A stretch of DNA of 48,749 nt. Origin: an uncultured Candidatus Saccharibacteria bacterium (GTDB lineage Bacteria; Patescibacteriota; Saccharimonadia; Saccharimonadales; CAZLKQ01). Position numbers and translations under genes: made by a program. A model generated the notes under the pieces. The model did not search any database. It was given only the letters and a program-made list of their open reading frames with translations, and was not told the origin of the DNA. Shown here piece after piece: positions 3,795-42,648 of this stretch. The number at the start of each line of letters is the position of its first letter. The stretch's first letter is position 1. The stretch is taken from positions 1 to 48,749 of the forward strand of contig CAZLKQ010000001.1 in the NCBI GenBank assembly GCA_964560175.1. The letters run 5' to 3'.

Positions 3795-5822
3795 ATGGAG
3801 TTAAGCAATCAGGTTATTTTGATCAAGGGTGTTGGCGAGTCATTGGCCAGCGATCTGGATTCAGTCGGTATCAAAACTGTTGCTGATCTGCTGCTATATG
3901 TTCCGCGTCGCTACGACGATTACTCAAAGGTTGTCGCTACCAACGTCGCCAAACCCGGTCCGGTAACCATCAAAGGCCAGATCGAGAAAGTCTCCCAGCG
4001 CTATGTCCGCCGCGGTTTGCATGTGACCGAAGCGGTGATCAAAGATGGCACCGGCCGGCTCAAGATGGTCTGGTTCAATCAGCCTTACCGGGCGGCTAGC
4101 CTACCCAGAGACACAGAAGTTTATGTGTCCGGGCAGCTGGAGAGAATTAGTCAAGGTTTCGCGATTTCCCATCCTGGAGTCGAGAAGGTCAGCTCTTTCA
4201 CCAAAAATACCGCCCGCATAGTGCCAGTCTATCCCGAGACCAGACGCATCGGATCAGCCAGAATCCGCCAATTGATAGCCGTCGTTTTGCAATCAAAAAT
4301 CAGCCTGCCCGAGATTTTGCCAAAAAGTTTGGTAAATGATTTCGGTTTGCTGCCATGGCGAGAGGCCATCCAGACTATTCATTTTCCGAAAACTTTGGAG
4401 ATGGCCGAGCAGGCCCGCTGGCGACTGGGTTTTGATGAACTGCTAAGTCTTATGCTGGCGCACGCCTTGCTGAAGCGCCAACTCGGCGAGCTCAAGAGTC
4501 CAAAGATTCCATTTGATGAAAAGTTAGCCAAAAGCTTTGTGGCCAGTTTGCCATTCAAGCTAACTGATGCCCAGAGGCGGGCAGCTTGGGAAATATTAGG
4601 CGACGTACAGAAGGTTCATCCCATGAACCGACTACTGGAAGGCGACGTCGGCAGCGGCAAGACCGTTGTCGCTGCATTCGTAGCTCTGATGGCCCAACGG
4701 GCTAGTTTCCAGACCGCCGTCATGGCACCGACTGAAGTGCTGGCCAACCAGCACTATCAGACTTTTAAGGATTTGCGCAAAACCTTAAAAGTTAAAATTG
4801 AAATTTTGACGGGCTCAACTAAGACAGCCGAGCGCAAAAAAATCTTAGACGGCGTGGCAGATGGTTCGGTAGATATGCTCATCGGCACCCACGCTTTGAT
4901 CCAAAAAGGTGTCGACTTCAAAAATCTCGGACTGGTCGTAGTCGATGAACAACACCGTTTTGGTGTCCGCCAGCGCCAGGCCTTGGTCGGCAAAAGCCAC
5001 TTGGTGCCCCACGTGCTGAGCATGACGGCCACGCCAATTCCGCGCAGCCTGATGTTGACGGTCTACGGTGAGCTTGACGTGTCGATCCTCGATGAACTGC
5101 CTCCAGGCAGGCAAGCCATTGACACCAAAGTTATCTCCAACCGCGCCCGCGATTCGATCTACGCCAAGATAGATCAGCAGATTGAGGATGGCCGGCAGGT
5201 GTATGTGATTTGCCCGCTGGTTGAAGATTCGGACTTTTTAGGTGTCAAATCAGCGACCTCAGAATTTGAAAAGCTGCAAAAGACCGTTTTTGCCCACCGC
5301 AAAATTGGACTGTTGCATGGCCGGTTGAAGGCGGATGATAAAACTAAAATCCTGGATAGTTTCAAAAAAGGCCAAATCGAATTGCTGGTTAGCACGACAG
5401 TCGTCGAAGTTGGCGTCGATGTGCCAAATGCCACCATCATGATGGTCGAGGGCAGCGAACGGTTCGGCCTGGCTCAGTTGCACCAACTGCGCGGTCGGGT
5501 CGGTCGGGGCAAACATAAAAGTTATTGTTACCTTTTTACCAGCGCTGACATGAAATCCCGCGAACGACTGCGTTATCTCGAGCGCACAAGCAATGGTTTT
5601 GAGCTAGCCGAGGCTGACCTGCAACTGCGCGGACCAGGTGAGATATATGGCACTGTCCAACACGGCGAGCTGGACCTTCGGATCGCCAAACTGACTGACA
5701 TGAAACTGGTGTCAACTACTCAAAAAGCCGTCAAAGAATTTATTGCTGAGTATGATCTGAAGGATTATCCAGAACTTGCCGGGAGAGTCCATATGCAGCA
5801 AACGGTTGCCCACCTGCTTTAG
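3795..5822 (+). CDS. recG: ATP-dependent DNA helicase RecG
   Basis: Helicase motifs GDVGSGKT, DEQHRFG, TATPIPR, QLRGRVGRG; N-terminal wedge/OB region; 675 aa. Confidence 0.92.
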   Translation: MELSNQVILIKGVGESLASDLDSVGIKTVADLLLYVPRRYDDYSKVVATNVAKPGPVTIKGQIEKVSQRYVRRGLHVTEAVIKDGTGRLKMVWFNQPYRAASLPRDTEVYVSGQLERISQGFAISHPGVEKVSSFTKNTARIVPVYPETRRIGSARIRQLIAVVLQSKISLPEILPKSLVNDFGLLPWREAIQTIHFPKTLEMAEQARWRLGFDELLSLMLAHALLKRQLGELKSPKIPFDEKLAKSFVASLPFKLTDAQRRAAWEILGDVQKVHPMNRLLEGDVGSGKTVVAAFVALMAQRASFQTAVMAPTEVLANQHYQTFKDLRKTLKVKIEILTGSTKTAERKKILDGVADGSVDMLIGTHALIQKGVDFKNLGLVVVDEQHRFGVRQRQALVGKSHLVPHVLSMTATPIPRSLMLTVYGELDVSILDELPPGRQAIDTKVISNRARDSIYAKIDQQIEDGRQVYVICPLVEDSDFLGVKSATSEFEKLQKTVFAHRKIGLLHGRLKADDKTKILDSFKKGQIELLVSTTVVEVGVDVPNATIMMVEGSERFGLAQLHQLRGRVGRGKHKSYCYLFTSADMKSRERLRYLERTSNGFELAEADLQLRGPGEIYGTVQHGELDLRIAKLTDMKLVSTTQKAVKEFIAEYDLKDYPELAGRVHMQQTVAHLL

Positions 5823-7920: not shown

Positions 7921-8007
7921 TGGTGGGGATGAAAGGACTTGAACCTTCACGAACCGAAGTTCACTAACTCCTGAAGCTAGCGCGTCTACCAATTCCGCCA
8001 CATCCCC
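7921..8007 (-). tRNA. tRNA-Leu(CAG) with encoded CCA
   Basis: Reverse complement GGGGATGTGGCGGAATTGGTAGACGCGCTAGCTTCAGGAGTTAG...GGTTCAAGTCCTTTCATCCCCACCA; cloverleaf with long variable arm; anticodon loop TTCAGGA. Confidence 0.9.
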
Positions 8008-33022: not shown

Positions 33023-33394
33023 ATGTCGGAAATGACTAGTGCTCTTCCCTGCAGTGATTGCCCTCGAAAGGCCAACCGTTTTGTAATCCGCACTTCAGGA
33101 ATAATATTAGAGGAACAAGGTGGAGTTATGTACGGCTATGTAAAACCTGACCGAAGGTCTCTTGTAATGGGTAGAATAAGCACCGCAGACTTAGAAGCGA
33201 ATTACCAAGATTTGGCTGCTTCTATCTATTTATGTGAAAGCCCAGTTACAATAACGCAACCAAAAGCCGGCCTACTGGGGCGGGTGGGCTTTAAGCGGGA
33301 GGTATTGGCATGCCCCGCGTTAAGGGAAGCAGTGGTAGAGAGAACTATTGCACGTATTGAAGAAATTAATAATCCTGAGGCGGGACATGACTGA
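33023..33394 (+). CDS. Orphan ORF A (123 aa) with PCxxCP motif
   Basis: LPCSDCPRKANRFVIR...; same strand, 5 nt after the rpsG stop. Confidence 0.55.
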   Translation: MSEMTSALPCSDCPRKANRFVIRTSGIILEEQGGVMYGYVKPDRRSLVMGRISTADLEANYQDLAASIYLCESPVTITQPKAGLLGRVGFKREVLACPALREAVVERTIARIEEINNPEAGHD

Positions 33395-33638
33395 GCTACT
33401 TAAAACTTTTGAATTTCCAGAAGCATGCGTTGGAAGTTGCCCCCAGATCGGCAGGTGGTTAAGCACCGTGGAACACTCAGATCCAGAAAGCTGGCGATAT
33501 ATAGAAGCAGTGAGTAAACTTAAAGGCTTGTCAGACATAGCCTGCGCTACTCAGTGTGGAGGACCGTGGGATGACCAAACAGAAATGGCCCCAGTCCTCT
33601 ATTGTTCAGGTAATCCAGGAAGTGATTACGGAGTTTAA
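33387..33638 (+). CDS. Orphan ORF B (83 aa), Cys-rich
   Basis: ATGACTGA overlap with ORF A; CVGSCP and CATQCGGP motifs. Confidence 0.5.
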   Translation: MTELLKTFEFPEACVGSCPQIGRWLSTVEHSDPESWRYIEAVSKLKGLSDIACATQCGGPWDDQTEMAPVLYCSGNPGSDYGV

Positions 33639-33639
33639 A

Positions 33640-34161
33640 ATGGCTGAGACACAAGAAATCGCCGTTGCCAGACCGCATATACCTTATACGGATGTTCCAG
33701 AATTAATAAAATGGCCATGCGAAAATTGCCCCAATAGGGTTAGTGTGACGGCTCGTATCAAGAGTGATTCTTTGCAAATTATGGACGGAGAATTGCAGAT
33801 TGAGGGAGTATGGGTGCCAGAAAATATTGATCCTCTGTCGCAACGAAAAGTAATTCTGGTCCAGTTAGGAAAGAAAGTAGCGGACTTATATGCTGAGGGA
33901 TGCACAGGTTCTCGTATCGAGGAAGATTGGTCACCGAATCATCGAGTCAGGCTGGATTACAACAGATGCAAATCCGAGTCGAGTGACGTACTCGAAAGAC
34001 TTGGTCGAGCCATGACCCCTGGCTGGGCTGGTTATTACGCTTTTGGGATGGGACTTATTAGGGAACAGATTTATACCGAGCCAGAACTTGCTATGTTAGC
34101 AGCGGAAAAAGCCAAATCCAAAGAAGAAGAGCGCCGAAGGCGAATGCGGGGACCTTACTAA
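33640..34161 (+). CDS. Orphan ORF C (173 aa) with PCxxCP motif and basic C-terminus
   Basis: GGAG SD, start AAATGGCTGAG; WPCENCPNRVSV resembles ORF A; its stop directly abuts the fusA ATG. Confidence 0.55.
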   Translation: MAETQEIAVARPHIPYTDVPELIKWPCENCPNRVSVTARIKSDSLQIMDGELQIEGVWVPENIDPLSQRKVILVQLGKKVADLYAEGCTGSRIEEDWSPNHRVRLDYNRCKSESSDVLERLGRAMTPGWAGYYAFGMGLIREQIYTEPELAMLAAEKAKSKEEERRRRMRGPY

Positions 34162-36248: not shown

Positions 36249-36578
36249 ATGTCAAAAGATGTAGAAATTGAAGATAGGGCACAAGGCTACATCGATGCCT
36301 GTGCTTTCCTTGATCTAGAATATGCTAACTGTGACATAGTCGCTCAGGAATTTCGGGAAGTTTATGAGCGACGTAGTGTAGAACTGCTCGGCGCTTTTCA
36401 TGTGGACACGCTGAGAGTTACCACAAAAATGGGTGCCCAAATCCTACATACTACAGGGGTATTAGTGTCGATGGGTCCATCAATAGTGCATAGGCGTAAT
36501 AAATTTAGGCAAGTTATCGATGATGAGTCAGCCGGCCTGGCTGAAGCAGAAGAAATAATTGCCAAAAAAGGCAAATAA
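36249..36578 (+). CDS. Orphan ORF D (109 aa), apparently derived from the fusA 3' end
   Basis: C-terminus AEEIIAKKGK* versus [13 protein letters not shown]; N-terminus VEIEDRAQG..CAFLDLE versus [20 protein letters not shown]. Confidence 0.5.
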   Translation: MSKDVEIEDRAQGYIDACAFLDLEYANCDIVAQEFREVYERRSVELLGAFHVDTLRVTTKMGAQILHTTGVLVSMGPSIVHRRNKFRQVIDDESAGLAEAEEIIAKKGK

Positions 36579-36579
36579 A

Positions 36580-37125
36580 ATGATAAGAGGATCTCTTTAC
36601 GAATCAACTTCCTATCCTGTATTGGATTTGTTGGTCGGAGTTGAGAGTAATCCTGCCGCCGATACACTTTTGGCCCAGATCGAGACCGCGGCTGCAGTAG
36701 ATGTAAAGCTAAGACTAGACTACAACGCTACGCTGCCAAAACTCAACTTGGCGGGCGTTATTGACTTAATCGCTATGGGCGACGAAAGCCGGCTGAAAAA
36801 ATACGCACAACTAAAATTACTCCACGATGCCGTATCAACTCCTGAAGATTTAGCTTCAAAGAATGATTCTGTTGTCACCGAGTTGGAGTTGGCGGTGTCT
36901 GGCTTGCAGCAACGCAAAGGGGAGAGTCGAAGAGTGCGCCTTTTGCATAAACGAGCAGCAAAAACTCTCGACTATTACCAGAAGCACATGAGACGGCGCC
37001 CGTTTTCTACGCCCAATCTACTTACACTGCTTGATAGAGATTCAGAGATGTTTCTAGGGGCAGTTAATTTTATTGGCGAGTTGTCGTTGGTTGAAAGGAA
37101 AATAACAAAATCATTTTCGCCTTAA
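36580..37125 (+). CDS. Orphan ORF E (181 aa)
   Basis: ATG 1 nt after the ORF D stop; no family recognised. Confidence 0.5.
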   Translation: MIRGSLYESTSYPVLDLLVGVESNPAADTLLAQIETAAAVDVKLRLDYNATLPKLNLAGVIDLIAMGDESRLKKYAQLKLLHDAVSTPEDLASKNDSVVTELELAVSGLQQRKGESRRVRLLHKRAAKTLDYYQKHMRRRPFSTPNLLTLLDRDSEMFLGAVNFIGELSLVERKITKSFSP

Positions 37126-37130
37126 CAGGG

Positions 37131-37159
37131 TTTACAACTGGGCTCAACCCCTGTACAAT
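37131..37159 (+). promoter_or_regulatory. Candidate promoter for tuf
   Basis: TTTACA, 17-nt spacer, TACAAT; AGGAGA SD lies before ATG 37237. Confidence 0.55.
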
Positions 37160-37236: not shown

Positions 37237-38421
37237 ATGGCAAATTTTGATCGCAGCAAACCACATGTAAACGTCGGTACCATGGGACACGTCGACCACG
37301 GCAAAACCACCCTGACTGCCGCTATTACGCACACCCTGAGCAAGCGATTGCCATCAGATATCAACAAACCGATCAATTTTGACCAGATCGACAACGCGCC
37401 CGAGGAAAAAGAACGCGGCATCACGATTGCTGTTTCACATCTGGAATATGAGTCTGAGAAGCGCCACTACGCCCACGTCGACATGCCCGGTCATGCCGAC
37501 TATATAAAGAATATGATCACAGGTGCCGCCCAGATTGATGGCGCCATTCTGGTTGTCTCAGCTGCTGACGGCCCAATGCCACAGACCCGTGAACATGTCC
37601 TACTGGCCCGCCAAGTCGGTGTGCCCTCGATCGTTGTCTTTCTAAACAAAATGGACATGGCTGATCCAGAACTAGTGGAGCTCGTCGAAGCCGATGTCCA
37701 GGAACTATTGACCAAGTACGAGTATGACGGTGACAAAACTCCGATTATCAAAGGTTCCGCCAAGAAAGCTCTCGAAGGCGATGAGAAGGAAATGGACAAC
37801 ATCATGGAGCTGGTCAAGGCTATCGATGAGCACATTCCTGAGCCAAAGCGTGATCTAGACAAACCATTCCTGATGGCCATCGAAGACGTTTTCTCGATCA
37901 AAGGCCGGGGCACCGTCGCTACAGGACGTGTCGAGCAAGGTATCGTCAAAGTCAATGAAACGGTCGAAATCGTCGGGATTCGTGATACTAAGAAATCAGT
38001 AGTTACCGGTGTTGAGATGTTTCGAAAAAACCTCGATCAAGGCCAGGCTGGCGACAATGTCGGTATTTTGCTACGGGGAATTGAAAAAGAAGATATCGAG
38101 CGCGGCCAAGTTTTGGCAAAACCCGGCACTATCACTCCACACACCGAATTTGACGCTGAAGTCTACATCCTGACAAAGGAAGAGGGCGGTCGTCACACGC
38201 CGTTTTTCAAAGGCTACAAGCCACAATTTTACTTCCGCACCACTGATGTGACTGGTGAAGTTGAGCTACCGGCTGATACAGAAATGGTCATGCCAGGTGA
38301 CACCATTACCTTCAAGGTCAAATTGATCCAAGCTATCGCTATGGACCAAGGCCAACGTTTTGCTATCCGCGAAGGCGGCAAGACCGTCGGCGCTGGCGTC
38401 GTAACGAAAATTAACAAATAA
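37237..38421 (+). CDS. tuf: Elongation factor Tu
   Basis: [18 protein letters not shown]; 394 aa. Confidence 0.97.
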
Positions 38422-38458: not shown

Positions 38459-38743
38459 ATGACAGAAACTTCACGACAACAGACCCCAGAAGAAATGACT
38501 CGATCAAGAATTGCTCTTTACCGTCATGCTGCTGCTGGTGGATACGATGTTCATCAATGGGGTACCAAGGAAGGCGAGATATATCATGAAGTTTTTGCGC
38601 AATCCGGTGATGAAATCCCAGATGCAAATTTTACTTATCTAGAGCCAATTTTGGAGCATGAAATAGTATATCTTGGCTCGTTGACTCCCAAAGGAGCAAA
38701 AGAGATTGCTGATCAATTGGAGGAGATTTTACTAAATGGCTGA
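38459..38743 (+). CDS. Orphan ORF F (94 aa)
   Basis: No family recognised; its stop lies inside a copy of the rpsJ start sequence. Confidence 0.5.
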   Translation: MTETSRQQTPEEMTRSRIALYRHAAAGGYDVHQWGTKEGEIYHEVFAQSGDEIPDANFTYLEPILEHEIVYLGSLTPKGAKEIADQLEEILLNG

Positions 38744-38755
38744 GGAAGTAAAATC

Positions 38756-39037
38756 ATGAGTTTGACGACAACTGATTTTCAAGAAATTCGAACTATTGTT
38801 CGTGAGGAAGTTGAAAGCATTGTAGAAGCGAAATTGAATCCACTCAGAAATGAGCTACAGGCTCTTCGTAATGATATAAAAGAAATTTACAACAGGCTGG
38901 TTAAACTCGAATCGCCTGTATTTACAAATAAGGAATTTAATAAATTACCACTAGAGAAAAGACTTCTGACATTAAATTCTGATTTGTTGGCGATGGCTAA
39001 AGAAATTGGTTTATCACTTCCAAGGAACACAAATTAA
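38756..39037 (+). CDS. Orphan ORF G (93 aa), coiled coil, paralog of ORF 7565
   Basis: MSLTTTDFQEIRTIVREEVES versus MNLTNDDLKSIKKVVSDSIDE. Preceded by the 7-codon remnant MAEEVKS*, coupled through an ATGA overlap. Confidence 0.55.
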   Translation: MSLTTTDFQEIRTIVREEVESIVEAKLNPLRNELQALRNDIKEIYNRLVKLESPVFTNKEFNKLPLEKRLLTLNSDLLAMAKEIGLSLPRNTN

Positions 39038-39391
39038 ATGGCTGAGGAAATTCGCGTACAACAGATGGATGAGCCACAGGATTGGGTGAAGAAACTGCGT
39101 GGAGCTGACAAGTTAGCATACGATGAGGTTCGCGAGGAGAGTATCGGAGAAATAGCAGAGGTTTACAAACAGCGGCTAAAAGAATTTGTTGATGAAATTA
39201 CTGAGATTGGAGCGGAGGAAGCCATCGCTCATAGAGCAACAAGGCTAGCAACTAATACCAGAGACTCTTTTGAAGCCGGCATCCAAGTTGGCATGGACAG
39301 CGAACGTGAGTATCGGCAACAACTGGCTCGTAGAGAAAGAGAAGAGCATGCCTCCTTTCAGAGAAATGTCATCGGAAATTGGGCTGGCTGA
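39038..39391 (+). CDS. Orphan ORF H (117 aa), acidic, helical
   Basis: Starts with ATGGCTGAGGAA, identical to the rpsJ start; TGATG overlap with rpsJ. Confidence 0.55.
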
Positions 39392-39729
39392 TGGCTGAGG
39401 AAACTGCAAAAGTAGTTCCAGCTGGCGTACCAAGGATCAGGATTCGACTGAAGGCTTATGATCACAAAGTGATCGACCTGTCGGCCAAGCAAATTATCGA
39501 TACTGCGGAGCGCACTGGTGCTACAGTGGCCGGACCGATTCCGTTGCCAACCAAGCGGAGTGTATACACGGTTATCAAGAGTCCTCATGTCTATAAAAAG
39601 GCTCGTGAGCAATTCGAAATGCGCGTACACAAACGACTGATTGATATCAGTAATCCGACTCCAAAAACCATCGATTCTCTCCAGAATCTGTCTCTACCTG
39701 CCGGCTGCGACGCCGAAATCAAAATGTAG
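39391..39729 (+). CDS. rpsJ: 30S ribosomal protein S10
   Basis: [21 protein letters not shown]...GPIPLPT; start trimmed to MAEE. Confidence 0.93.
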
Positions 39730-39878
39730 TGGCAATAACTCCCTTTTGTGACAGGTGCGGCGAGGAACTAAAGAAATTTGGGGCAATCCTGTTTAGCCCG
39801 CCAAATGCTAAAAGTGTTGTCAAAAAACTACATGTATGCGTTGATTGCTATAAAGAAATAGTTAAAACTTTCAAATAG
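39729..39878 (+). CDS. 49-aa zinc-ribbon micro-protein
   Basis: GTG start overlapping the rpsJ TAG (TAGTG); [13 protein letters not shown]...VCVDCYKE has two CxxC pairs; below the ORF-track cutoff. Confidence 0.45.
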
Positions 39879-39958
39879 GTATTGCTCATGCTTGCAAATC
39901 GGGTAAGTATATACCAAGCTAATCGAATGAATGAAAAAAAAGGTTAAAGTAGTAATTT

Positions 39959-40336
39959 ATGACCGCTGAACATAATATTAACCAAGCGCAGCTATATTAT
40001 GAAATACGTGAGCAATTTACAGAAATGCGCGAATCATTTTCAGCTGAGCGGACAGCATACTTAGAACTATTACTCTCCTTGGAAGGTGTTCCCGTAAGTG
40101 CTTCGTATAGGTTTCGGTATGTCAAAGAACCCGGGGAGTTTGGTCGCGGTGGACATCTAACAGACTTATTACAACCTGTTGATAGGCAAGCTGTGAAAGT
40201 AGTCATCTCGGAAGTAGGTGAATCAAATTTAGGTGTGCGTATAGTAAGAGAAAACGGATCACCAAATAATTTTGTTGAGATTGTTGCTTTTGACGACTTT
40301 GAATTGTTAGAGATAAGTAGCAACAACGCAAACTAA
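39959..40336 (+). CDS. Orphan ORF J (125 aa)
   Basis: No family recognised; AT-rich; flanked by the 16-nt repeat GTATTGCTCATGCTTG. Confidence 0.5.
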   Translation: MTAEHNINQAQLYYEIREQFTEMRESFSAERTAYLELLLSLEGVPVSASYRFRYVKEPGEFGRGGHLTDLLQPVDRQAVKVVISEVGESNLGVRIVRENGSPNNFVEIVAFDDFELLEISSNNAN

Positions 40337-40472
40337 TCGCAAAAGTATTGCTCATGCTTGTCACATATTGACAGTGATATAATTTTGGTATGAATCCCGT
40401 TAGAACTAAGTATTTTATCGAAGACAAAACCTGCCGCTTTTTAATTAGCGTAAAAAACGGAGTTCTAACGGG

Positions 40473-40739
40473 ATGAATAACGTATCTTTGTCCTTACCAT
40501 TTCTCATTCAAGGCGATAGCCCACAGCACAAGGCCATGAGGCGTCATCAGTTGTATGATTTACTCGAAAAAGACAATGAACTGCTAGCGGATATTCTCGA
40601 CCTTCAACGCAAGCTGGCTAAGAAAAAAGATAAGGAGTCTCGCGAATTAGTTGACGAGCTCGGTGAAATCGTTCAGGAATTTCTCGGTCTGAATCGTCAA
40701 AAATTAGAACTTACCAAGGCCATCAATAAAGATACCTAA
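40473..40739 (+). CDS. Orphan ORF K (88 aa), coiled coil
   Basis: Its start is sequestered in a perfect 14-bp inverted repeat and coupled (ATGA) to a 28-codon uORF at 40390-40476. Confidence 0.5.
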   Translation: MNNVSLSLPFLIQGDSPQHKAMRRHQLYDLLEKDNELLADILDLQRKLAKKKDKESRELVDELGEIVQEFLGLNRQKLELTKAINKDT

Positions 40740-40741
40740 TT

Positions 40742-41053
40742 ATGCCCACGATACCTAAACGTCAATTTGACGAGGTGGGCAACGAATTAGCTGGTTTACA
40801 ATCGGAAACCATAGAGAGTAAATCAGCAGATACGCCGATAGTCGAACAGACCAGAGATGTTATAGCGCGTACGGTGGTGCAAACTTTCTTTTTGCTGCTA
40901 GGTGTAATTCTGATCGGCGTGCCGGTCTACAATGCCAATGTAGCCAGCGATCTCCGACTTGATCTACCTGATCTGCTGCAACAATATTCAGCGATTTTGG
41001 GCCCTGTGCTAGGCTTTGTCATCGGCTACTATTTCAAGAGCAAAAATGACTAA
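40742..41053 (+). CDS. Orphan ORF L (103 aa), two TM helices
   Basis: VVQTFFLLLGVILIGVPVY and ILGPVLGFVIGYYF. Confidence 0.5.
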   Translation: MPTIPKRQFDEVGNELAGLQSETIESKSADTPIVEQTRDVIARTVVQTFFLLLGVILIGVPVYNANVASDLRLDLPDLLQQYSAILGPVLGFVIGYYFKSKND

Positions 41054-41486
41054 TCTCGAAGGCTGCAAATTTTGTGATCCTAAAAGTGAAGATCTAAGAC
41101 CACGCTTAATTAATCTCGGCAGCTGGTGTTATTCAGCTTTATCCAATCCTCGCATAACTCGCGGACATGCTCTGGTGATTCCGAACCGACACGTTGAGGA
41201 CCCAACTGAAGTTGATGAAAGAGATTTTATATACATACAAAGAGAGATCATAAAATTACAGAGGAAAATTCTGCTCGAAATTGCTCCGGGTGTTGATGTT
41301 TGGCAAAAATATCAGCCGTTTGTCGAGGAAGGGCACGCAGGAACAAAAATGAACCATGTTCATTATCACGTGATTCCCAGAAATCCTGCCGACGGTTTAC
41401 TGATGTCACCCGAACCAGGAACCGATACATTCTCGCCGCTTTGCGAAGAAGAGCGTATCGACATGCTCGAAATTTTGGGACCATAA
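41046..41486 (+). CDS. HIT (histidine triad) family protein
   Basis: HVHYHVIPR triad; ATGACTAA overlap with ORF L; start trimmed from 41016. Confidence 0.78.
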   Translation: MTNLEGCKFCDPKSEDLRPRLINLGSWCYSALSNPRITRGHALVIPNRHVEDPTEVDERDFIYIQREIIKLQRKILLEIAPGVDVWQKYQPFVEEGHAGTKMNHVHYHVIPRNPADGLLMSPEPGTDTFSPLCEEERIDMLEILGP

Positions 41487-41511
41487 AATCTGTATCTGCT
41501 AAAATACGCTT

Positions 41512-41766
41512 ATGACTAACCGTAAGCGTGAATCAAACAGTGTCTATTTTCTGAAAATTGTCTTTTTCTTCGTGATTGGCACCATTTGGATTCGCTTTGG
41601 GGCCGATTCCAGAACTGGAGGAGGTATTCCAATTGGTTTGCTGTTGGGGATTATTTTTGCCAATCACGACCACTTCCAAATCGACCAAAAAATTGAATTT
41701 GCGATCCTGCTGATTGCTGCCATCCTAAGCTTTGTTTTCCCTATCGGCGCAGTCATAGTCGTCTAA
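41512..41766 (+). CDS. Orphan ORF N (84 aa), membrane protein
   Basis: Three hydrophobic segments; start ATGACTAAC echoes the HIT gene start ATGACTAAT. Confidence 0.5.
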   Translation: MTNRKRESNSVYFLKIVFFFVIGTIWIRFGADSRTGGGIPIGLLLGIIFANHDHFQIDQKIEFAILLIAAILSFVFPIGAVIVV

Positions 41767-41841: not shown

Positions 41842-41871
41842 TTGACACATCTGTTGTACATCTGGTAGTAT
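41842..41871 (+). promoter_or_regulatory. Candidate extended -10 promoter for rplC and the downstream S10-operon genes
   Basis: TTGACA, 18-nt spacer, TGgTAGTAT; about 150-nt structured leader follows. Confidence 0.5.
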
Positions 41872-42024
41872 TTAATCAATTGCACTCGGCTGCGTTTATT
41901 TGGATTGCGGCAAGAGACTGGTCTGTAAGTTCTACGATAAATCAGGACCAAAGATCCTGAGCGAAGTCGAAGGATACTGCAAATCAGCCTCCAGTGCAGT
42001 TTGACTTAAAATTAGGAGATAGAC

Positions 42025-42648
42025 ATCAAAGCTATCATTGGCACCAAGATCGGTATGACCCAGATCCTGACAGAGGATGGTACGGCTGTGCCTGTAACCT
42101 TGGTCCATGCCGAGCCAAACGTCGTTACCCAGAACAAAACAGATGAAGCCAATGGCTACAACGCCGTCCAGCTAGGCGCCGGCCGAGCCAAAAGACCCGC
42201 CAAACCCCAAGAGGGACATGCCAAGAAAGCCGGTCTAGACTTTACCCCGCGGATTATGCGCGAGGTACGCGACCTCGAGTTTGACCCCGAAACTATAAAA
42301 CCCGGAGCCAAAGTCGAAGTCACGAACTTTGAAGTCGGCGACGAAGTCGATGTCACGGGAACTAGCAAAGGTAAAGGCTTCGCCGGAACCGTCAAACGTC
42401 ATAATTTTCTAACCAGCCCAAAATCTCACGGCGGTAAAGGCTATATCCGAAAACCTGGCTCGATCGGCTCTATGTATCCGCAAAAAGTCATGAAGGGCAA
42501 ACGAATGGCCGGCCGCATGGGCTTTGATAAAACTACCATCGTCGATCTCAAAGTCGTGCTAGTAGACGCCGAAAATAATTTACTCGGTATTAGAGGCGCC
42601 TTGCCTGGGCCGCGCAAAGGCACAGTCATAGTGCGAGGTTCTAAATAA
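42025..42648 (+). CDS. rplC: 50S ribosomal protein L3, probable non-AUG (ATC) start
   Basis: The conserved N-terminus (I)[13 protein letters not shown] is in frame upstream of the first ATG (42055); AGGAG SD lies 6 nt before ATC 42025; in-frame TAG at 42013. Confidence 0.88.

Follow-up and report, generated by a model that had tools for sequence, protein, structure and literature searches.

The contig examined here (CAZLKQ010000001.1; its whole 48.7-kb stretch, positions 1 to 48,749, is called the window) is, judging from its sequence, a piece of the chromosome of a member of the Saccharibacteria (TM7). Within it, the ribosomal-protein genes rpsJ (S10; 39391..39729) and rplC (L3; 42025..42648) are separated by 2,295 bp, counted from the rpsJ stop at 39729 to the rplC start at 42025, and the gap is occupied by small genes on the + strand. 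An original prediction, made from the DNA letters, interpreted this gap as an accessory island of about 2.3 kb and 4 of its genes, here named cc88, tm103, HIT, and tm84, as a compact effector- or immunity-style module; the gap and all of the listed open reading frames (ORFs) were found as described, and it is the interpretation that changes. We consider it likely that the region is a phylum-typical boundary between 2 ribosomal transcription units, not an inserted island, and that it combines inherited residents with 2 slots of fast turnover. Under this model, rpsJ would travel with tuf, and rplC would head a separate operon, served by a promoter of its own and a long structured leader. Between rpsJ and rplC would lie a permissive site, where inherited residents sit beside slots that turn over among close relatives.

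The rpsJ–rplC gap across Saccharibacteria

The island interpretation took it as normal that L3 comes directly after S10, which does not apply in this phylum. Our locus sample comprises the 80 best L3 matches, taken as one genome per GTDB species (56% to 64% identity); these metagenome-assembled genomes are mostly labelled Saccharibacteria, Saccharimonas, or Nanosyncoccus, with some “uncultured bacterium” and 2 Nomurabacteria. In 0 of these 80 species-level loci does rpsJ abut rplC. The gene lies upstream of rplC on the same strand in 46 loci, at a distance of 185 to 8,178 bp (median 1,879), and a single locus carries an inverted rpsJ just upstream of rplC (L031:9361-9654). In 17 loci, Nanosyncoccus-type genomes among them, at least 9.7 kb upstream of rplC contain neither rpsJ nor tuf; in the remaining 16, the upstream sequence is too short to judge the position of rpsJ. 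Separation of rpsJ from rplC thus appears to be the normal, phylum-wide state in Saccharibacteria. L010, L024, L030, and L036 are among the loci that lack both rpsJ and tuf over roughly 10 kb next to rplC.

What fills the gap differs between lineages, with genes on both strands across the 80 loci. In other species, it holds VanY-type carboxypeptidases (21 ORFs), PGA_cap/CapA proteins (7 ORFs), DUF3152 proteins, a lysine-rich membrane protein, and orphans. One gene stands apart from this variation. The gene tm84 (41512..41766) encodes, in agreement with the original description, an 84-aa membrane protein; it has the motif HDHFQIDxKIE and about 3 hydrophobic helices. Searched iteratively, the complete ORF set of the loci (1.5 Mb) yielded 36 members of its family, every one on the + strand; they are 84 to 135 aa long, have about 3 hydrophobic helices, and share the invariant core HxxxxIDxKxE (consensus HDHFQIDQKIE). 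Wherever both flanks are visible (33 of 33 loci), tm84 lies between rpsJ and rplC, and the 1.5 Mb of loci contain no member outside this gap. Among closer relatives, tm84 stays beside rplC while the remaining gap genes vary. These observations point to tm84 as an inherited, phylum-wide resident of the gap. An AlphaFold2 (AF2) model built from 15 homologues reached a pLDDT of only 63.

A second resident appears to be the gene pair cc88–tm103, at least in this clade. The first gene, cc88 (40473..40739), encodes an 88-aa protein that is helical, soluble, and charged; it had been described as a coiled-coil protein, and the PDB matches of its positional-family profile (A3) are designed coiled coils only. 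The second, tm103 (40742..41053), encodes a 103-aa membrane protein with a C-terminal LGFV-GYYF signature (LGFVIGYYFK in the window). It had been described as spanning the membrane twice: one strong transmembrane segment is evident, and the second, a C-terminal hydrophobic segment, is weaker. A sub-threshold similarity of tm103 to PF08040 (MNLL) reflects a single helix and was rejected as membership. Homologues of tm103 are 40% to 82% identical and share 25 invariant columns, including LGFVIGYYFK. They lie inside the rpsJ–rplC gap in L084/85, L086, and L089/90/92 (locus labels of our sample); in L087/88, L093, and L096, their surroundings are unrelated. Directly upstream of every tm103 homologue, overlapping or abutting it, is an ORF of 76 to 106 aa that is predicted to be helical; the closest of these partners, in L086, is 74% identical to cc88.

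The occurrences outside the ribosomal context raise the alternative that cc88–tm103 is a self-contained cassette that moves independently and sits in the gap by chance in some lineages; one version of this idea is an autoregulated toxin, small and membrane-bound, paired with a soluble antidote or regulator. We regard this as quite unlikely. The ORFs of the pair always overlap or abut, a 12-nt motif that could be an operator (TGCTCATGCTTG) precedes the pair in 4 lineages, and a strand-helix-helix pattern can be discerned by eye in the distant partners. As in type II toxin–antitoxin (TA) systems, the genes are small and co-oriented, with a 2-nt spacing in the window and overlaps in L084, L087, L089, L091, and L093-097. 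However, no TA, ribbon-helix-helix (RHH), or defence model matched, and no similarity of the pair to a known toxin or antitoxin family was found. Moreover, tm103 is strongly conserved, unlike fast-evolving TA toxins; it is present in single copy per locus and has a host-like composition; and its partner proteins are not united by profile comparison. An RHH identity for cc88 and the other partners was likewise rejected, with no RHH match in Pfam or PDB and an hhalign probability of 8%.

Variable slots and a palindromic element

The boundary model, with its residents and slots, draws its sharpest detail from the nearest relative, L086. Identities to L086 are 93% for rpsJ, 74% for cc88, 82% for tm103, and 72% for tm84. 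The order there is rpsJ, 2 ORFs of 133 and 147 aa, cc88, tm103, IspH, an IDI-like NUDIX protein, UppS, and tm84. DNA alignment between the window and L086 is confined to 4 blocks: rpsJ, a 46-nt promoter piece (83% identity), cc88–tm103, and tm84 with 20 nt upstream. Between these blocks, 2 segments of the window are replaced. Slot A (39731-40348) carries zn49 and o125 in the window and 2 other long orphan ORFs in L086; slot B (41054-41491) carries HIT in the window and IspH-IDI-UppS in L086. Absence from a close relative at the same site therefore holds for zn49, o125, and HIT, and not for cc88, tm103, and tm84. Isoprenoid and undecaprenyl genes are found in the gap of the closest relatives (L083:3559-7982, L086:1892-4110); in L083, the genes before tm84 are NUDIX, HD, methyltransferase, UppS, polyprenyl synthase, and NUDIX. 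None of these L083 and L086 genes has a homologue anywhere in the window.

Composition follows the same division. The GC content at third codon positions (GC3) of cc88, tm103, and tm84 is 0.45, 0.47, and 0.48, close to the reference of 0.50 ± 0.08 (45 genes), and that of zn49, o125, and HIT is 0.36, 0.32, and 0.37, about 1.5 to 2.3 standard deviations below the mean. The label “accessory” thus fits HIT, o125, and zn49, which are absent from L086, sit in sharply bounded slots, have low GC3, and lack close relatives; it does not fit cc88, tm103, and tm84, which are conserved in position and host-like in composition. The sequence comparison suggests that HIT, zn49, and o125 are recent, swappable cargo.

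The cargo of slot B, HIT (41046..41486), has an ATG that overlaps the tm103 stop by 8 nt. Its assignment to the HIT-family hydrolases is borne out: PF01230 matches with 38.7 bits against a gathering cut-off of 21.5, and the histidine triad (NHVHYHVIP) is intact and aligns with the triads of 1Y23 and 3L7X. The protein, which also has an N-terminal CxxC, appears to be a bona fide superfamily member, a divergent HIT protein of the Hint/Hit type with a predicted nucleotide hydrolase function. A word-index search for close relatives returned only the protein itself, and none were found in JGI metagenomes or IMG/VR.

In slot A, zn49 (39729..39878) encodes 49 aa from a GTG start with a CxxC...CxxC arrangement. 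As predicted, this zinc-ribbon ORF overlaps the rpsJ stop, its GTG sharing one base with the rpsJ TAG. It yields only weak zinc-ribbon matches in Pfam, is absent from L086, has no close relatives in the collections searched, where it is unique to this genome, and has a codon score of about 0. The second slot A gene, o125 (39959..40336), was described as a 125-aa orphan and remains one: a search of 1.84 billion cluster representatives returned the protein itself and a spurious repeat-protein match only, and IMG/VR holds no match. Its single-sequence AF2 model has a pLDDT of 42; its in-frame codon score is 0.16, against a maximum of -0.19 in the other frames.

A different kind of insertion accounts for the 28-codon upstream ORF (uORF) reported at 40390-40476, the TGA of which overlaps the cc88 ATG. 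The ORF is present; comparison with the empty site in L086 indicates that it is a by-product of the insertion of a palindromic element resembling a miniature inverted-repeat transposable element (MITE). This 89-nt element (40390..40478) has the structure ATGAAT-CCCGTTAGAACT-[53 nt]-AGTTCTAACGGG-ATGAAT. It lies directly behind the first 2 cc88 codons, and ATGAAT is doubled in the window and single in L086. The arms are 12-nt perfect terminal inverted repeats, extendable to 29 nt at 83%; the predicted fold has an energy of -30.1 kcal/mol (z -4.4), and one stem position covaries between copies (C:G, T:A, G:C). At least 5 other contigs of the same metagenome match 40389/90-40477 only, with unrelated flanks. 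Full copies are found in the window, in L037, and twice in L093; 4 of 4 begin with ATG plus one codon. The L037 copy (2417-2510) lies at the rpsS start with ATGAGT duplicated, which is single at the empty site in L014 and L005, and one L093 copy (- strand, ~4516-4600) lies in frame at another gene start. In the 3 copies examined in detail, the ATG is a gene start codon, and in the window and L037 it is regenerated by the duplication. Insertion of the element behind codon 2 of cc88 would have doubled ATGAAT and left the old cc88 start to open the short ORF that ends over the regenerated ATG. Because ATGAAT is single in L086, filled and empty sites exist, and the element is multi-copy, we read the uORF as an old start codon plus a mobile element, that is, as a scar. 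No transposase-encoding autonomous relative turned up, and no dedicated search was made for one.

The slot A genes and the uORF could also be chance ORFs in decaying intergenic DNA, with the other genes of the gap being real. The codon scores of zn49 and the 28-codon ORF are near 0, the gene caller of the matching Logan contig did not call zn49, o125 combines the lack of relatives with a poor model, and the 28-codon ORF can be shown to be an artefact of insertion. Yet the codon score of o125 is positive and the gene has the same upstream 16-nt motif as cc88, a chance ORF of 49 aa is unlikely to contain 2 CxxC pairs (about 1e-4 per ORF by our estimate), and slot A of L086 is likewise filled by 2 long ORFs. 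We therefore judge this explanation unlikely for the set as a whole; on account of its double CxxC, zn49 is probably a real gene.

The original explanation, a horizontally acquired island whose cc88–tm103–HIT–tm84 block forms an effector/immunity or defence-type module, retains some points. HIT, o125, and zn49 are confined to the lineage and low in GC3, the region is dense in small genes, a mobile palindromic element lies inside it, and HIT weakly matches ThsC in PADLOC (28 bits, E 3e-7) and 2 PHROGs families of unknown function. Nevertheless, 3 of the 4 block genes appear vertically conserved here, and the isoprenoid genes at the HIT position in L086 mean that the 4 genes are not a unit. Pfam, NCBIfam, and PHROGs found no integrase, transposase, or recombinase domain in the ORFs of 38459-41766. 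No tRNA gene lies at the borders (the only ones in the window are at 7921 and 9802), and no island-flanking or att-type repeats were seen, the sole notable direct repeat being the 16-nt promoter-associated motif that flanks o125. Beyond the generic HIT-ThsC match, PADLOC, Pfam, NCBIfam, and PHROGs returned no toxin, immunity, or defence domain. Recurrence on mobile replicons was not seen: the island DNA has no match in the INPHARED phage or PLSDB plasmid collections, the tm103 and tm84 families have none in an IMG/VR scan, and phage HIT proteins are only 27% to 30% identical to the one in the window. ThsC of the Thoeris system shares the HIT fold signature, but the window offers no ThsA or ThsB (TIR or SIR2) neighbours, and the score is typical for any HIT protein and no evidence of membership. 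Conservation in place together with host-like composition and membership in known housekeeping families had been named in advance as what would overturn the island; position and composition agree for 3 of the 4 block genes, and matches to known housekeeping families are lacking. Taken together, we consider an effector or defence island very improbable.

Several points weigh against the model of a unit boundary with residents and slots. The slot boundaries rest on one close comparison, with a 4.6-kb contig (L086). The low GC3 of the slot genes could reflect weak expression, not recent acquisition. Homology between cc88 and the distant tm103 partners is not demonstrable (hhalign probability 8%), and cc88, tm103, and tm84 have no relatives in Pfam, NCBIfam, or PDB. 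Finally, the transcription units described below are inferred from consensus motifs, and the exchange of slot contents from the pattern of conserved flanks.

Transcription units, start codons, and the rplC leader

The upstream unit is opened by tuf (EF-Tu; 37237..38421, +), with a promoter-like site at 37131-37159 (+). The rpsJ product is well supported (Pfam S10 125 bits, NCBIfam 154 bits). Between tuf and rpsJ lie 3 small acidic ORFs on the + strand, at 38459-38743 (94 aa), 38756-39037 (93 aa), and 39038-39391 (117 aa); none has a family in Pfam or NCBIfam, and the first 2 have a GC3 of 0.27. The first matches the first post-tuf ORF of L084 weakly (E 0.02). In relatives, the tuf–rpsJ spacer is also variable (195 to 4,817 bp) and appears to be a second variable gap of the same cluster. 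Further upstream, ORFs without family assignment lie between fusA and tuf (36249-37125; 109 and 188 aa) and, as it appears, in the rpsG–fusA interval (33023-34161); relatives such as L084 likewise carry additional ORFs in the stretch of rpsL, rpsG, and fusA. Lineage-specific genes seem to be interspersed through the whole str/S10 region.

From tuf to rplC, the + strand has no predicted intrinsic terminator, so that read-through from tuf and rpsJ could express the gap genes. In addition, cc88–tm103–HIT–tm84 would be expressed from their own conserved promoter and be translationally coupled; the observation that the block is tightly coupled stands, with spacings of 2, -8, and 25 nt. The cc88 promoter region (40345..40383, +) comprises a motif copy (40345-40360) and TGaTATAAT, with its -10 box at 40378-40383. 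This box and the ATG at 40390 are 6 nt apart, no Shine-Dalgarno sequence is present, and L086 (1250-1270) conserves the arrangement, which suggests that the cc88 transcript is leaderless in this lineage. Upstream of cc88-type genes, the motif TGCTCATGCTTG recurs in 4 lineages, and it also precedes o125 and a slot A ORF of L086. Its positions are 39879-39894 (the 16-nt copy GTATTGCTCATGCTTG, +, upstream of o125) and 40345-40360 in the window, ~708 and ~1222 in L086, L084:7342, and L087:6987. The 2 copies in the window are not significant by themselves; the support is the recurrence in relatives. Because measured copies lie at different distances from the -10 box (13, 17, and 21 nt), we rejected the motif as a -35 box; it may be an operator.

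The downstream unit begins with the predicted rplC promoter (41842..41871, +; TTGACA-18-TAGTAT with an upstream TG). Sequence comparison supports a promoter of its own for rplC: this site is the best + strand promoter match within the gap, and it recurs at the same position with near-identical sequence in L082 and L083. Most Saccharibacteria, here called the core clade, have TTGAC-17-TGTGCTATAnT and a leader of about 110 to 135 nt before rplC. RNAalifold predicts 17 pairs for the core-clade leader, 11 of them with compensatory changes. A covariance model built from it, R1, finds the leader in 42 loci within L003-L080 (59 to 115 bits; e.g., L018:9898-10006), always ending at the rplC start. We propose this as a candidate ribosomal leader RNA with covariation support. 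Neither the rplC leaders nor the island matched Rfam 15. The leader of the window (41878..42024, +; 147 nt) is also structured, with a stable predicted fold (-46 kcal/mol, z -2.3); against R1 it scores 3.1 bits, which is not significant, and the leaders of its nearer relatives L082-L084 and L089 give no match at E 0.01. The leader of this clade is thus divergent and escapes R1.

The rplC gene, with rplD and the remaining cluster genes downstream of it, seems to start at an ATC codon. This ATC (42025) lies 6 nt after AGGAG, and the first ATG (42055) is 30 nt downstream. An independent Logan contig of the same run shows an identical rplC start sequence; in 77 of 77 compared relatives, the start is ATG or GTG. 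The run is a permafrost metagenome that contains the DNA of the window, and no RNA runs containing the region were found.

Implications and comparison with known systems

The conserved flanks would let slot cassettes be exchanged by homologous recombination, a plausible route given the natural competence of Saccharibacteria (PMC10633639). For such an epibiont, the region offers a concrete case in which gene-sized cassettes turn over while the sequences on either side are conserved. For annotation, a broken S10 operon in Saccharibacteria should not be taken for an island or an assembly error. As by-products, the analysis gave a covariation-supported candidate ribosomal leader RNA without an Rfam entry and a small mobile element that favours start codons, which is unusual.

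Two proposals go further; taken jointly, we hold them as possible and rather doubtful. The first is that tm84, joined in this clade by cc88–tm103, could be a Saccharibacteria- or candidate phyla radiation (CPR)-specific membrane component with a functional link to the ribosomal-protein cluster, such as a part in building the membrane or envelope co-translationally. If true, this link would explain the retention of tm84 between rpsJ and rplC. The second proposal is that the palindromic element could be an undescribed mobile element that targets start codons: it would hit the first codons of genes and duplicate the start codon, so that the host gene survives behind a short coupled uORF. The products of tm84 and cc88–tm103 are conserved small proteins, and their genes hold a fixed place, probably one of high expression, in the very small genomes of this phylum; now that cultivated Saccharibacteria are genetically tractable, they are good targets for study.

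Among known systems, the HIT protein is closest to the Hint/Hit branch (Bacillus subtilis Hit, PDB 1Y23), with which it shares the HxHxHxx triad, an N-terminal CxxC, GHxLVIP, and a length of about 145 aa. The structure 1Y23 is its best PDB match but a remote one (E 1e-5, 29 bits), and HIT has an insertion before the triad. The palindromic element is akin to MITEs and to Correia- and repetitive extragenic palindromic (REP)-type repeats in its size (about 89 nt), 12-nt inverted repeats, 6- to 7-nt duplication, multiple copies, absence of transposase coding, and 2 filled/empty site pairs. It differs in that its copies start with ATG plus one codon, at gene starts wherever this was examined.

Integration hotspots are variable slots between conserved core genes. 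Like chromosomal hotspots, the slots described here have shared conserved flanks, sharply bounded nonhomologous replacements, and cargo of lower GC3; unlike them, they are tiny (0.4 to 2.3 kb, 1 to 3 genes), lie within a ribosomal-protein cluster, and carry no mobility genes.

A survey of ribosomal leaders (Eckert & Weinberg 2020, PMC7247131) does not mention Saccharibacteria or TM7, and the one candidate it gives with rplC as the first gene is the L4 leader of Archaeoglobi. The latter is likewise located directly before rplC(-rplD), but it belongs to another domain of life and has no sequence or model match to the saccharibacterial leader. The S10 operon of the Escherichia coli type offers a parallel in organization: it has the same downstream order, rplC-rplD-rplW-rplB-rpsS, and a long structured leader, the L4-controlled S10 leader, before the operon. 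In Saccharibacteria, by contrast, rpsJ lies outside the operon and is linked to tuf, and the putative leader precedes rplC.

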